From contig JBDTZG010000077.1 in NCBI GenBank assembly GCA_040005235.1, forward strand, positions 1 to 21,531: DNA of 21,531 nt, read 5' to 3'. Each line of letters starts with the position of its first letter. Position 1 is the stretch's first letter. The translations under genes were made by a program, and so were the position numbers. The notes beneath the pieces were generated by a model, which made no database searches, was not told where the DNA came from, and saw only the letters and a program-made list of their open reading frames with translations. Shown one piece after another: positions 5,701 to 11,700 of this stretch. Source of the stretch: Acidobacteriota bacterium (lineage in GTDB: Bacteria; Acidobacteriota; Thermoanaerobaculia; Multivoradales; UBA5704).

Positions 5701-8700
5701 TCTCGTTCGGCAAAACTTGTGCGCAGCGTCTCGTGGCGGCGCGCGATCTCGGCGGCACTCGCTTTAAGCAGCGGCACCGAAAGCTCTCCCTTGAGAAGGA
5801 AAGCGGCGGGGATGTTGTACGCCGCGTTGTGCGGATCGAGTTGATCCAGGAACCAGAGCCGCTCCTGGGCGAAGGAGAGGGCGGTAGGCTCGTCGGGCCG
5901 CCGAGGAAGCCGCGGAATCGGCCCCAGAGCTACCCGCGCCGGTTCTAACGATTCAACCGGTTCGACCGATTCGACTTCATAGCCGAGCCGGGCGGCGAGA
6001 ACGCGCGCCGGGTCGCCCAAGAAGTTCTCGTTCAGCTCTTCGCGCCAGCGCTCGGCGACGGCCGCGTCGACTCTGGCATGGCGGTGGAACTTGACGTCGC
6101 CGAGCATCCGCGATTCTTCGTACGGCCCGTCGGTCATCCGCGCTCGGGCGTCGCCGTAGGGATCGGCCATCTCGGGGTGATAGTCGAGGCCGAGAAAGGC
6201 GCAGATCGCGGCCAGCTCGCGGGCCGGATCGCGCACGAGATCTTCGAACCTCAGCCGATGATGCCGTTCTTCCGGTACACCGGCGAGGAAGCGCTCGACG
6301 TTGTCGTGGCTCGCGAGCCAGACCAGCTCCGCCAGCTCACGGCGCGAGAACGGGTGGCGGTGGCGGAAGAAAACCTGCTCCAGGCGCGCCTCTTCGAACG
6401 AGCGGATCATGCCGTAGGGATGGCGCGTCAGGTGCAGGTAGCGCGGCTCCTCGAAGCTCTGCTCGATGCGCGCCAGAAGCGCCGGATCGAGCGCGTACGA
6501 GGGGGTCTTGTCCACCAGCAGGCGGTCGCCGAGCCAGCCCTGGAGCCGGCGGGTCAGCACTTGGGTCGGCAGCGCCTCGGCCTCGGCGGCGGCAAGGATC
6601 TCGGCCGCCTCCTCGGGGCCGCATTGCCGCACCTCCATCACCGCGCGCAGCAGCCCTTCGAGCCAGAAGCTCTCGCGTCCCGAGAACGCCGCCTTGCGCT
6701 CCGCCATGTCGCCGAAGGTGAGCAGCTCCAGCTCCGGCGGCGCGAACAGCCGCGGATGGCCGGCGAGCATCACCCGCAGGAGCGTTGAGCCGGAGCGCGG
6801 CGGCGACAGCACGAACAGGGCCGGCGGGTTTTTCACCGCCGCGGGGTGCCAGGAGACCGGGGTGACGATCCGGCGCAGCAACTCGGACTTAGCTTCGTCA
6901 ACCCGTTCGACCGGCGCGACGGGTTTCTCAGCCGTCGAAACGAGCGACTCGGCGCCCCAGACCGCGGCGACCGCCTTCGGATAATCGCGCGCCAGGTACG
7001 CCGCGAGGCCGGCCACCGTCGGATGGTCGAAGATCGCCACCACGTGGACGATCTCGCCGAGCCGCTCCTGCACCCGGTTGATCAGGATCGCGCCCGAGAT
7101 CGAGCTGCCGCCGAGCGCGAAGAACGGATCGTGAATCCCGACCTTTTCCGCGCCCACGGCCTCGTGCCAAAGATCGACGAGATCGCTTTCGAGGGCGGTG
7201 CGCGGTGCAACATGCTCCCGCCCGCCCGCGCCCGCTTCCGCCAACGACGGTTCCAACGGCAGCTTCGCGAGCGCCGCCCGGTCCGCCTTGCCGCTGGGCG
7301 AAAGCGGCAGGGAAACGAGCCGCACGAAAGCCGAGGGGACCATGTGGTCGGGCAGAAGCGCACGCAGGGCAGCGGAGAGCGCGGCTACGGAGAGATCCAC
7401 GGGCGTCACATAGGCGACCAGTCGCCGGTCCCCTTCCGCCCCTCCGGCCGACGCCGCAGCGAGCGCCAGCACCACCGCTTCGGCGACGCCGGACTGATCG
7501 GTGAGCACCGCCTCGATCTCCCCCAGCTCGATGCGGAAGCCGCGGATCTTCACCTGATGATCGAGCCGGCCCAGGTACTCGATCGCCGCGTCGGTGGCGT
7601 AGCGGGCCAGGTCGCCGGTGCGATACAGGCGTGCGCCCGGCTCGGCCGAGAACGGGTCGGGCACGAACCGTTCCGCGGTCAGCTCCGGCCGCCGCCAATA
7701 GCCGCGCCCGACCTGGACGCCGCCGATGAACAACTCGCCCGAGACCCCCACCGGCACCGGCCGGAGCGTGCGGTCGAGCAGATGGATCGTCGTGTTGGCG
7801 ACCGGCCGGCCGATCGGCACCGTGCTCCGGCTGCCGTGCTCACAGGCCCACCAAGTGACGTCGACCGCCGCCTCAGTCGGACCGTACAGGTTGTCGAGTG
7901 CGGCGCCGGAGCGCGCCAGGAACCGGTCCTGAAGGTCGCGGGAGAGCGCCTCGCCGCTCGCGATCACCCGCACGACCGAGCCGCACCGTTCGACGCCCGG
8001 TGCCGAGACGAAGACCTGGAGCATCGACGGCACGAAATGGAGCGTCGTGATGCGTTCGGCCTCGATCGTCTCGACCAGGTAGGCGCTGTCGCCGTGGCGA
8101 CCCGGCTCCGCCATCACCAGGCGGGCGCCCGCGAGCAGCGGCCAGAACAGCTCCCACACCGAGACGTCGAAGCTCACAGGCGTCTTTTGGAGCACCCGGT
8201 CGGCGGGACCTAAGGAATAACGCTCCTGCATCCAGAGCAGACGGTTGACGATCGCTCGGTGGCTGTTCATCGCCCCCTTGGGCCGGCCGGTCGAGCCCGA
8301 GGTGTAGATGACGTAGGCCAGGTTATCGGGATCGGTGCCGCGGGGCGGTAGAGCCTCGCCCTCTTCCTCGAGACAGCCGTCGAGGAGCACCACCCGCGCG
8401 CCATGCGCCGGCAGCGCCGCGACCAGCCGCTCCTGGGCGAGGAGCACGCCCACTCGCGAGTCTTCGAGCATCCAGGCCAGCCGTTCTTCCGGGTAGGACG
8501 GGTCGAGCGGCACGTAGGCGCCGCCGGCCTTCAAGATCGCGAGCAGGCCGACGCTCAGCTCCAGCGAACGCTCGGCGACGATCCCCACCCGTGCCTCCGG
8601 ACCGACCCCCAGCTCCACCAGCCGCCGCGCCAGAGCGTTGGCCGCGCGATCGAGACGGCGATAGCTGAGCGGCGCGCCGGCCGAGGTGACGGCGACCGCG

Positions 8701-11700
8701 TCGGGCGTGCGCGCCGCCTGCTCCTCGATCAGCTCGTGCAGGCAGACCCTTTCGCGGTAGGTCGTCGCCGTGGCGTTCCAATCCTGGAGCTGTTGTTGCT
8801 CGGCAGGGGAAAGCAGCGGCAGCTCCGAGATCCGCCGTTCAGGATTCGCCTCAAGGCCCGCGATCAGGGTGTTGAGGTGCCCGGCGAAGCGGGACACGGT
8901 CGCGCGGTCGAACAGGTCGGTCTTGTAGAGGAACCGGCCCGCGAGGCCGCGGTCGGCGGACTCTTGAACGTTGAGCACCAGATCGAGCTTCGCGCTGTCG
9001 CTCTCGACTTCGACGCCTTCCAGGACCAGCCCCGGCAGGTCGAGCTTCGGCAGCGGCGTGTTCTGCAACACCAGGAGAACCTGGAAGATCGGCGCGTGGG
9101 CGAGGTTGCGCTCCGGCGCCAGCTCGGCCACCAGCTTCTCGAACGGCAGGTCCTGATGGGCATAGGCGCCGAGCGTCGTCTCGCGGACCTGGGCGAGCAG
9201 CGCGGAGAAACGGGGATCTCGCCCCAGGTCGGCCGGCAGCGGCAGGGTGCTCAAGAAGAGCCCGATCAATCCTTCCGTCTCGACCCGGGAGCGGCTCGCG
9301 ACCGGCGAGCCGACCACCAGGCGCTCCTGCCCCGAGAGGCGGGAGAGAAGAACCTCGTAGGCGGCGAGCAGGGTCATGAACAGGGTCGCGCCGTGCCGCC
9401 GTCCGAGGGCGGCGAGCGCGCGGGTGAGCGGCTCGCCGATCTCGACCGGCAGGCTCCTGCCACACGAGTTCGCCACGGCCGGCCGCGGCCGGTCCGTGGG
9501 CAACGTGAGCGCGGGCGGTGGCCCAACGACCCCATGGACCGAGCCATGCAGCGCCTCGCGCCACCAGACGAGTTGGCCGGCGAGCGCCTCCCCTTCCAGC
9601 CAGTCGCGTTGCCAGGCGGCAAAGTCGGCGTACTGGATCGGCAGCGCGGGCAGAGCCGGCTCCTCACCCTCCCCCGCGGCGTAGAACGCCCCGACCTCGC
9701 GCAACAGCACGCCTATCGACCAGCCGTCGGCCACGATGTGATGAAGGGTCAAGATCGCGAGGTGCTCGGAGGGAAGGTGCAACAAGACGATCCTCGCGAG
9801 CGGCGACCGGGCGAGATCGAACGGCCGCGACGCCTCGGTGCGCAGCAAGCGCTTCGTCTCAGTACCCGTCGCCGCGGCCGGCAAGGCGGCGAGGTCCACG
9901 CGACCAACCGGCAGCTCGGCGCGCGGCGAAATTTCCAATACGACCTGTCCCTCGCGCTCCCGGAAGGCGGTGCGCAGCGCCTCCTGCCGCTCGACCACCC
10001 GCTCGAAGGCGAGCGCGAAGCGCCGCGGGTCGAGAGCCCCAAGGAGGCGCAGCGCCACCGGGATGTTGTACGAGGAATCGCCGGGCGCGAAGCGATCGAG
10101 GAACCAGATCCGTTCCTGTGCAAACGAGGCGCGCACCGGAGCGTCCGCGGCGCGGCGCGCGATCGGCGGCGAAGCGCCCGGCGCGGCGGCGATCATCCGC
10201 TGGGTACGCGCGGCAAGAGCGGCGAGGGTCGGCGCCTCGAACACCGCCCGCACCGGCAACTCGATCGCGTAGGTCTCGCGCACCCGCGCCACCAGGCGGG
10301 CGGCGAGCAGCGAGTGGCCGCCGAGGTGGAAGAAGTCGTCGTCGCGGCCGATCCGGTCGGCACCCAAAAGCTCGGTCCAGAGATCGGCCAACCCCTCTTC
10401 GAGCGGCGAGAGCGGCGCGCGATAGGCCACGGCTCCAGAAAGTAACGAGCCGCGCGCCCGGAGCAGGCGTCGCTCCGGCCGTCCTGCCGGCGGAACGACG
10501 AGCTGCAGCAGCTCCTCCGCGGCCAGCAGAGGAAGCTCCGAGAGCCGCCGGCGCGGGCTCTCTGCCGCCGCGGCGACCCAGACCTCGAAAGCGCGGGCGA
10601 AGCGCTCGGCGGTCGTCGCGTCGAACCGGTCGGCGCTGTACTCCAACCCACCTTCCACGCTTTCCTCCCGCTCGGTGAGCGAAAGGGTGAGATCGAGCTT
10701 GGCCGTGCCGGTCTCGATCTCGATCGGCGTGAGGGTGAGCCCCGGCAGATCCAGAACCGGCAGCGGCGCGTTGTGCAGCACCAGCAGAACCTGGAACAGC
10801 GGCGACCCGGCGAGATCCCGCTCCGCGGCAAGCTCCTCGACCAGGCGCTCGAACGGCAGATCCTGGTGAGCGTAGGCGCCGAGAGCCGTTTCCCGCGCGC
10901 GCTCAACCAGGCGCTCGAACGGTGGATCGCCGACGAGCGACGTTCGGAGAACCAGGGTGTTGACGAACAGCCCGATCAACCCTTCCGTGGCGCTGTGCCG
11001 CCGGTTGGCCACGGCCGTGCCGACCAACACCTCTTCCTCGTCGGCGAGCCGCCCGAGAAACGCTTGCAGCGCCGCGAGCAAGCCCATGAACGGGGTGGCA
11101 CCACGCCTGCGGCACAGTGCGCGCAGCCGATCCCACTCCTCCGGCCCCAAGCCGAACGGCCGCACCCCGCCGCGCCGGGAGGGCACCGCCGGCCACTGCC
11201 GATCGGCGGGCAACTCCAGCTCCGTGGGCGCCCCGCCCAGGCGCTCGCTCCACCAGGCGAGCTGCGCTTCGAGCATCGGTCCCGCCAACCCGCGTCGCTG
11301 CCAGAGCGCGTAGTCGGCGTACTGGATCGGTAGCGGAGGCAATGTGGCGCCGCCGTAGTGCGCGGCAACCTCGGAGAGGAGCACGCCAAAAGACCAGCCG
11401 TCGGCCGCGATGTGGTGCAGCGAGAGGAGCGCCAGATGCAGACCGTCTTCGAGCCGCAAGAGCCGGGCGCGCAGGAGAGGCCCGCGCGCCAGGTCGAACG
11501 GCAGCCGCGCCTCCGCCGCCAATAGCCGCGCCACCTCCTGCCCTCGCGTGGCCTCCGGCAGGAGGCGCAAATCCGTGCAGCCGAGAGAGATCGCTTGTTC
11601 CGCATCGATCTCCTGAACCGGACCTGCGCCGGAATCCCGGAAGCGCGTGCGCAGCGGCTCGTGCCGCCGCACTACGCCGGACAGGGCGCGGGCGAAGCGG

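Follow-up and report, generated by a model that had tools for sequence, protein, structure and literature searches.

A CurM-like sulfotransferase domain in a serine-type module of a nonribosomal peptide synthetase from a Thermoanaerobaculia bacterium

What does a sulfotransferase do in the middle of a peptide assembly line, between a loaded carrier and the condensation domain that takes the chain onward? We examined this question for a 21,531-base stretch of DNA (hereafter the window) from a Thermoanaerobaculia (Acidobacteriota) bacterium, one whole contig of its assembly (G000:C84), which is filled by a single minus-strand open reading frame (ORF; 3..21530, 7176 aa, both ends open) that belongs to a nonribosomal peptide synthetase (NRPS). 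In this frame, a sulfotransferase (ST) domain directly follows a carrier (T) domain in one polypeptide and stands before a condensation (C) domain, in the order T-ST-C, and the adenylation (A) domain ahead of the carrier has a serine-type code. By analogy with sulfotransferase modules that load glycerate, we give about even credence to a role in which the ST O-sulfonates the carrier-bound serine on-line and the sulfate is retained, which would place an O-sulfoserine in the product.

The sulfotransferase domain and its surroundings

Pfam, run over 18 overlapping 700-aa tiles of the window protein, and our own domain hidden Markov models (HMMs), which were built from this genome's domains and cannot separate epimerization (E) or heterocyclization (Cy) domains from C domains, gave the order A(partial)-T-C-T-C-T-C-A-T-C-T-C-T-C-A-T-ST-C-A-T-C-A(partial). 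An original prediction, made from the sequence, had described a complete ST between T and C, followed by at least two further modules and with no thioesterase (TE) adjacent. All of this was borne out: the modules after the ST are C-A-T and C-A(partial), and the Pfam tiles contained no TE within the window. The span of 5980-8745 given for the unit does cover A-T-ST, but the true limits are 5961-8726 and leave the following C domain outside, and that C domain, labeled C8, is in fact the seventh of the window. The features of the unit are:

7287..8726, minus strand: adenylation domain with Ser-type code DVWHISLVDK (aa 4269-4748; Pfam AMP-binding and AMP-binding_C)
6993..7184, minus strand: T7 carrier domain, motif GGSSI instead of the usual GGHSL (aa 4783-4846; Pfam PP-binding)
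6840..6992, minus strand: T-to-ST linker of 51 aa (family median 53 aa, range 34-71)
5961..6839, minus strand: ST domain of the type using 3'-phosphoadenosine 5'-phosphosulfate (PAPS), CurM/OLS-like (aa 4898-5190; limits from our own HMM)
6777..6803, minus strand: PPRSGSTLL, presumed 5'-phosphosulfate-binding loop (aligns to the CurM and OLS ST block; conserved across the family)
6720..6740, minus strand: PPELELL block (from alignment to CurM PPELHLL)
6396..6434, minus strand: HLTRHPYGMIRSF block, the likely 3'-phosphate-binding region (aligns to CurM and OLS)
4518..5888, minus strand: condensation domain after the ST, with intact HHVVADGWS (aa 5215-5671; Pfam Condensation)
3..4451, minus strand: downstream units A-T-C-A(partial), carrying the chain onward (Pfam and our own HMMs; ortholog in G001:C9)

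The ST matched Pfam Sulfotransfer_3 (PF13469) above the family's cut-off (E 3.5e-29), the match covering positions 1-215 of the 216 in the profile, and its only strong matches in the Protein Data Bank (PDB) were the CurM ST (4gbm, E 3.1e-59; alignment over query positions 56-350 of 361, about 290 residues) and the OLS ST (4gox, E 1.2e-55), with the next match at 4.4e-4. The CurM likeness put forward in the original prediction thus held up in these searches. The window ST, 4gbm and 4gox have in common the blocks PRSGSTLLRVMLAGH, PRSGSTLL, PPEL and HLxRHPY / HLxRHPxxxxxSF, and the PAPS blocks align to both known domains; we take PPRSGSTLL to be the PAPS (5'-phosphosulfate) loop of sulfotransferases and the HLxRHP block to be the 3'-phosphate-binding region. 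Across 155 aligned ST domains (the window's and those of its relatives), HL.RHP.....SF is conserved in at least 90%, and the window ST deviates in a single column among those with a conservation of 90% or more. The window's PPE Glu, found in 153 of the 155 domains, aligns with the Glu of CurM PPELHLL, which presumably acts as the catalytic base of the CurM ST, while the His of the CurM block is a Glu in the window. In the 4gbm chain numbering these two CurM residues stand at 63 and 65, three higher than the Glu60 and His62 reportedly given in the CurM ST paper.

Could the domain be an inactive vestige? The change from His to Glu and the single deviating column would be consistent with decay, but Glu at the CurM-His position is the family norm (130/155, with His in 2/155), so that PPELELL indicates no defect, and all motif blocks are intact. 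Furthermore, the dN/dS of the ST was 0.09 and 0.22 against two orthologous loci, L010 and L011, respectively, and no other domain of the region is conserved as well: amino acid identity to L010 is 92% for the ST and 75-88% for its neighbors (A, T, C and the next A). As this indicates purifying selection, we regard a vestige as very improbable. Judged by its sequence, the window ST looks active. It would probably draw on PAPS, which the host can make given its adenosine 5'-phosphosulfate (APS) kinase gene (C99, E 8.6e-57).

The same arrangement recurs in related loci. A search of species-representative genomes gave 138 pattern matches, six of which were confirmed; the nearest loci lie in metagenome-assembled genomes (MAGs) of Thermoanaerobaculia and Thermoanaerobaculaceae, with STs 89%, 90% and 80% identical to that of the window, and the more distant ones in Holophagales and other Acidobacteriota. 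All five loci with upstream sequence (L010, L011, L013, L014 and L015) contain A-T-ST-C, and L012 begins within the ST and continues into C. In L011, a contig of a long-read MAG, indel errors of the assembly have most likely broken the orthologous gene into several shorter frames, among them ones of 1919 aa and 2290 aa. The ortholog in G001 is complete on a 175-kb contig (G001:C9), where its cluster lies at about 26-76 kb, and encodes 8591 aa in the order C-A-T-C-T-C-T-C-A-T-C-T-C-T-C-T-C-A-T-ST-C-A-T-C-A-T. Three genes follow it, KS-AT-T-C-A-T-KS-AT-KR-T, C-A-MT-T-TE and C-A-T-TE (KS, ketosynthase; AT, acyltransferase; KR, ketoreductase; MT, methyltransferase), and the assembly line is a hybrid of NRPS and polyketide synthase (PKS). 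The first TE of this cluster is two genes downstream of the ortholog, and the ST module is far from any TE. As the line opens with a starter-type C domain, its product may be acylated.

Relatives of the domain and the residue on its carrier

The A domain before the window ST has the code DVWHISLVDK, its ten positions being read at A7-motif anchors; the anchor rule was checked against the 1AMU (GrsA-PheA) numbering on another A domain, where positions 235, 236, 239, 278, 299, 301, 322, 330 and 331 came out as expected. DVWHISLVDK is the serine code of RlpB module 1 (PMC12964202), and DVWHFSLVDK that of the Ser-activating EntF domain (PMC3795760). A 110-aa pocket segment had its best PDB matches in Txo2, Txo1, FscH and EntF (E 2e-34 to 3e-29; the next at 2e-22, then about 7e-11), and eight of nine pocket positions are identical to EntF in the EntF alignment. 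The code and this EntF-like pocket make Ser a well supported substrate prediction for the A domain, in agreement with the serine module originally proposed.

We searched 1.84 billion representatives at 50% identity; 6053 matched at E <= 1e-3, of which 1191 reached E <= 1e-30. Contexts, codes and motifs are given for the best 150 of these 1191 representatives, annotated with our own HMMs and holding 158 ST domains, which stand as follows:

T-ST-C: 73 of 158 ST domains
T-ST with an unannotated tail of about 230-350 aa behind it: 45 of 158
T-ST at the protein end: 28 of 158
ST at the N-terminus (cut proteins): 10 of 158
T-ST-T: 2 of 158

Nine tails were run through Pfam, and all nine contained Thioesterase (P0018, P0036, P0049, P0062, P0094, P0108, P0129, P0130 and P0135). 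Terminal A-T-ST-TE modules are common, for example in P0017, P0018, P0036 and P0049, and tandem T-ST-T-ST units occur in P0008 (followed by C) and P0062 (followed by a weak TE match). Among six checked proteins that have no upstream A domain, one is a PKS module, KS-AT-T-ST-TE (P0130), with no KR match at E <= 1e-5. Ten relatives were looked up, all of them from MAGs or metagenomes and either named 'amino acid adenylation domain-containing protein' or bearing no name; a protein atlas search returned only generic free-standing sulfotransferase clusters. In an even sample of the phylum, 3 of 301 reference genomes, this one included, matched at E <= 1e-60, so that the ST family is sparse within the phylum despite its more than 1000 representatives. 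The window ST is a member of a large uncharacterised group of STs wired into amino-acid modules. In the literature searched, with subscription journals and supplements outside it, neither an ST within an NRPS module for amino acids nor an NRPS-made O-sulfated Ser or Thr is described; the pertinent cases were glycerate-loading modules, which house the only NRPS-embedded STs described, and the trans-acting SulN. The characterization of this logic as rarely described therefore holds for that literature; among sequences, though, the architecture is frequent.

The carriers in front of these STs are of a kind of their own. T7 of the window has GGSSI, compared to GGHSL in the window's seven other T domains. 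When the eight commonest motifs of each class were tabulated, T domains before an ST showed GNSI (44), GDSI (35), GDSL (16) and GSSI (14), as well as GNSL, GTSI and GTSL; these seven motifs cover 128 pre-ST T domains, four more have no motif, and GHSL is absent from the eight commonest categories. By contrast, GHSL is present in 75 of the 98 listed T domains that precede a C domain.

A tabulation of the upstream A domains, which the original prediction had proposed together with the T-ST-C search, linked the ST to the residue on its carrier. The codes of the 107 ST domains that have a full A domain before T are:

Thr-type: 26 of 107
Ser-type: 17 of 107
Tyr-type: 11 of 107
D[IV]WE.TADDK: 9 of 107
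various other codes: 44 of 107

Thr-, Ser- and Tyr-type codes thus account for 54/107 ST-adjacent A domains, compared to 8/84 A domains from these proteins that no T-ST follows (odds ratio 9.7 and p 6e-10 by Fisher test; 26 A domains whose followers are unknown were excluded). We take the DASTVAAVCK-like code to stand for Tyr, the DLFNNALTYK-like code to be Ala-type and devoid of a side-chain nucleophile, and DIWELTADDK to stand possibly for 2,4-diaminobutyrate (Dab); none of these three codes was found in the papers searched, and their meanings are presumed. The Thr-type group consists of DFWNIGMVHK and near variants, and DFWNIGMVHK is the Thr code of DhbF2 (PMC4169593). The D[IV]WE.TADDK code also stands before the ST in L014 and L015. 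If its substrate is a diamino acid, the STs that follow it might make sulfamates.

The phylogeny pointed the same way. In a FastTree phylogeny built from 161 ST domains, 31 changes of upstream code class were counted (109 labeled domains), where 500 label shuffles averaged 56.8 and never fell below 50; for the downstream partner (C, TE or T) the count was also 31 (133 domains), with a shuffle mean of 41.5 and a minimum of 33. The direction is clear: the ST is tied to the residue that its carrier holds, and far less to the domain behind it.

These data bear on an alternative in which the ST sulfonates some other nucleophile of the chain held on T7, such as a hydroxyl of an acyl starter or of an earlier residue, rather than Ser. 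The starter-type C domain that opens the ortholog would supply an acyl chain, and 53/107 ST-adjacent A domains have codes other than the Thr, Ser and Tyr types, some of them Gly-like. However, codes for hydroxy amino acids are strongly enriched beside the ST, the branching of the ST tree goes with the class of the upstream code, and the earlier A domains of the window have DLFNNALTYK-like codes and hence, on our reading of that code as Ala-type, would contribute no side-chain nucleophile. We therefore consider a target other than Ser improbable.

The fate of the sulfate

The role to which we give even credence would run as follows. The A domain would load L-serine onto T7, and this special-type carrier would present a seryl or peptidyl-seryl thioester to the ST, which would move the sulfate from PAPS onto the Ser side-chain hydroxyl. 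The ordinary C domain next in line would then pass on the O-sulfoseryl peptide, and the finished product would bear O-sulfoserine. All of this would take place within an elongation module, in a lipopeptide line of the hybrid NRPS-PKS type from a Thermoanaerobaculia bacterium. The sequences show the architecture, the homology, the conservation, the Ser-type A domain and a link to hydroxy-amino-acid modules across the family; from there we infer the use of PAPS, the target atom, the timing and the retention of the sulfate.

In the closest solved homologs the sulfate meets a different fate. The CurM and OLS STs resemble the window ST in sequence, in their PRSGSTLL, PPEL and HLxRHP blocks and in their place directly after a carrier inside a megasynthase, and in these systems a dedicated TE after the ST eliminates the sulfate with decarboxylation (PMC11730487). 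In the window, the sulfate on T7 might likewise serve as a leaving group: elimination, spontaneous or assisted by the C domain, would yield dehydroalanine, and displacement a beta-substituted residue or a small ring. We hold such an outcome to be unlikely, though far from negligible. Besides the homology to STs whose sulfate leaves, it is favored by Ser- and Thr-type modules being the commonest ST partners (43/107), as both residues can be dehydrated, and by the alpha-proton beside the thioester, which on chemical grounds favors beta-elimination. Yet the ST family also stands behind A domains of the aromatic type, whose residues do not permit elimination; the C domains after STs form no distinct subtype; the TEs after STs are of the ordinary NRPS type and not CurM-TE-like; and modules composed of FkbH, a peptidyl carrier protein (PCP) and an ST retain the sulfate on a hydroxyl that is equally beta-positioned. 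The leaving-group reading lacks specific support.

The aromatic partners are exemplified within the same genome, which has two more strong ST copies, on C118 and C55, 53% and 57% identical to the window ST, respectively; both are T-ST-C, making three such units in all. C55 (L002) is a 2.6-kb contig, and C118 (L008; G000:C118:156808-177489) encodes a 6894-aa protein of the order KS-AT-T-C-A-T-C-A-T-C-A-T-ST-C-A-T-C-A-T. Its A domain before the ST reads D235 A236 S239 T278 V299 A301 A322 V330 C331 in 1AMU numbering, and the best solved matches of its pocket are epsilon-poly-lysine synthase, followed by the Phe-activating TycA and GrsA, from the last of which it differs by W239S, I299V and I330V. 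A phenol sulfate cannot be eliminated. If this code stands for Tyr, as we presume, part of the family would thus make stable sulfate esters. Aromatic (Phe/Tyr-type) A domains before the ST and ordinary NRPS-type TEs after it also weaken the analogy to a beta-hydroxy thioester on which the original prediction had leaned.

The domains that follow the STs were informative as well. For the TE behind the Ser-type A-T-ST of P0017, the matches are TEs of NRPSs and other ordinary ones (4zxh, E 3.5e-29; 7crn, E 6.3e-22), and the CurM TE is absent among its 46 PDB matches at E <= 0.01; a CurM-type TE after the STs of the relatives was rejected, as the TEs examined match the NRPS type. A search for a dedicated C subtype after the ST likewise came back empty: on a tree of 205 C domains, those behind an ST do not form their own clade, with 39 changes where shuffles averaged 51.4 and went no lower than 43 (70 post-ST domains and 87 others). 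The nearest neighbor of the window's post-ST C domain is an ordinary C domain of the same protein (aa 1054), and there is thus no sign of a dehydrating or ring-forming subtype.

Among known systems, the window unit would work most like the FkbH-PCP-ST modules, with which we liken it by their descriptions: here too an ST embedded in an NRPS stands after a carrier and before the next condensation. Such modules occur in OciA for cyanopeptolin-1138/oscillapeptin E (PMC2533009), in DysB for the dysinosins (PMC6520454) and in AerB for suomilide and varlaxin (PMC10143770), and in each case the product keeps a sulfated glyceric acid. The glycerate is loaded by FkbH at the start of the line, whereas in the window an amino acid is loaded by an A domain in mid-chain, and no Pfam tile of the window protein matched FkbH, an AMP-binding A domain preceding T instead. 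These differences in A domain, amino acid substrate and mid-chain position mean that the unit is not an FkbH-PCP-ST module. Nor is it an off-loading unit of the CurM type. The PKS units of CurM and OLS are composed of an acyl carrier protein (ACP), the ST and a TE, and act on a beta-hydroxyacyl-ACP made by a KR; in the window, a Ser-type A domain loads the carrier of a C-A-T module, the ST precedes a C domain, no TE is near, and the ortholog continues with C-A-T-C-A-T and its three further genes. The lack of both a TE and a KR-made substrate excludes that assignment. Taken together, the aromatic partners, the ordinary TE, the ordinary C domain and the FkbH-PCP-ST products that keep their sulfate make retention the more economical reading.

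A third comparison concerns sulfazecin, for which the original prediction had placed an ST in the terminal module of SulM. This was wrong: a separate enzyme, SulN, sulfonates the PCP3-bound tripeptide in trans in a PAPS-dependent manner (PMC11298585). SulN resembles our reading of the window ST in that it uses PAPS to sulfonate a peptide held on an NRPS carrier. It differs in making an N-sulfamate on 2,3-diaminopropionate (Dap), ahead of beta-lactam closure by a special Cys-TE, whereas the window ST is fused within the 7176-aa frame.

Several points weigh against sulfate retention on Ser. The enrichment and the tree statistics use related sequences, so that independence is overstated, and the 53 other codes, a few of them Gly-like, mean that not every ST has a hydroxy residue ahead of it. 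The assignment of Tyr in C118 rests on a presumed code, the pocket itself being Phe-type with Trp239 changed to Ser. An O-sulfoseryl thioester combines an acidic alpha-proton with a good leaving group, which makes on-line loss of the sulfate chemically plausible. Finally, the contig of the G001 ortholog contains no PAPS-supply gene or sulfatase, the APS kinase gene and all 24 sulfatase matches of G001 being on other contigs, and the cluster thus gives no further hint.

Whichever outcome holds, sulfation or a leaving group, genome-mining tools would gain a new tailoring step that they could predict. To our knowledge, sulfated nonribosomal peptides are rare among known compounds, and where the origin of the sulfate is known it comes from free-standing enzymes or glycerate-loading modules. 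Here, a CurM-type ST stands in ordinary amino-acid modules, with a carrier variant of its own that has no GHSL and with its own active-site variant, PPELELL, in a group that prefers Thr-, Ser- and aromatic-type modules; the domain may be portable for site-specific sulfation in engineered NRPSs. Dehydro amino acids are made from Ser and Thr by dehydrating and beta-lactam-forming NRPS C domains, and in lanthipeptides by phosphorylation or glutamylation followed by elimination, with no ST known to be involved in either. A sulfate-based activation of Ser, and of Thr in the relatives, leading to mid-chain dehydroalanine or dehydrobutyrine, a beta-substituted residue or a small-ring residue, is in our view a tentative minority prospect. 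If true, such activation would add to these two routes a third way of making dehydro amino acids for peptide natural products, one not yet described. Uncultured bacteria would then use it widely, and plain sulfation would have been kept by the family members that act on aromatic residues.

Other features of the window and the genome

Elsewhere in the genome, two free-standing ORFs of 423 and 348 aa at G000:C104:107019-115495 (L004-L006) show weak similarity to the window ST (E 5e-8 to 2e-4).

Upstream of the ST module, each of the first two A domains in the window protein has two C-T units lacking an A domain after it, four in total, at window 10203-13508 and 16728-20054 on the minus strand. 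Every C domain of these units retains HHxxxDG, and their T domains retain GGHS; the A domains beside them are those with DLFNNALTYK-like codes. The G001 ortholog has two such units and then three. This arrangement suggests that one A domain serves several carriers in these stretches. The C domains at aa 2675 and aa 3239 are near-identical (tree distance 0.38), which indicates a recent internal duplication. At the other end of the protein, the last, partial A domain (window 3-1319, minus strand) has SHDPLLRD where the FDxS pocket motif is usual, and is of a type unlike the window's other four A domains.

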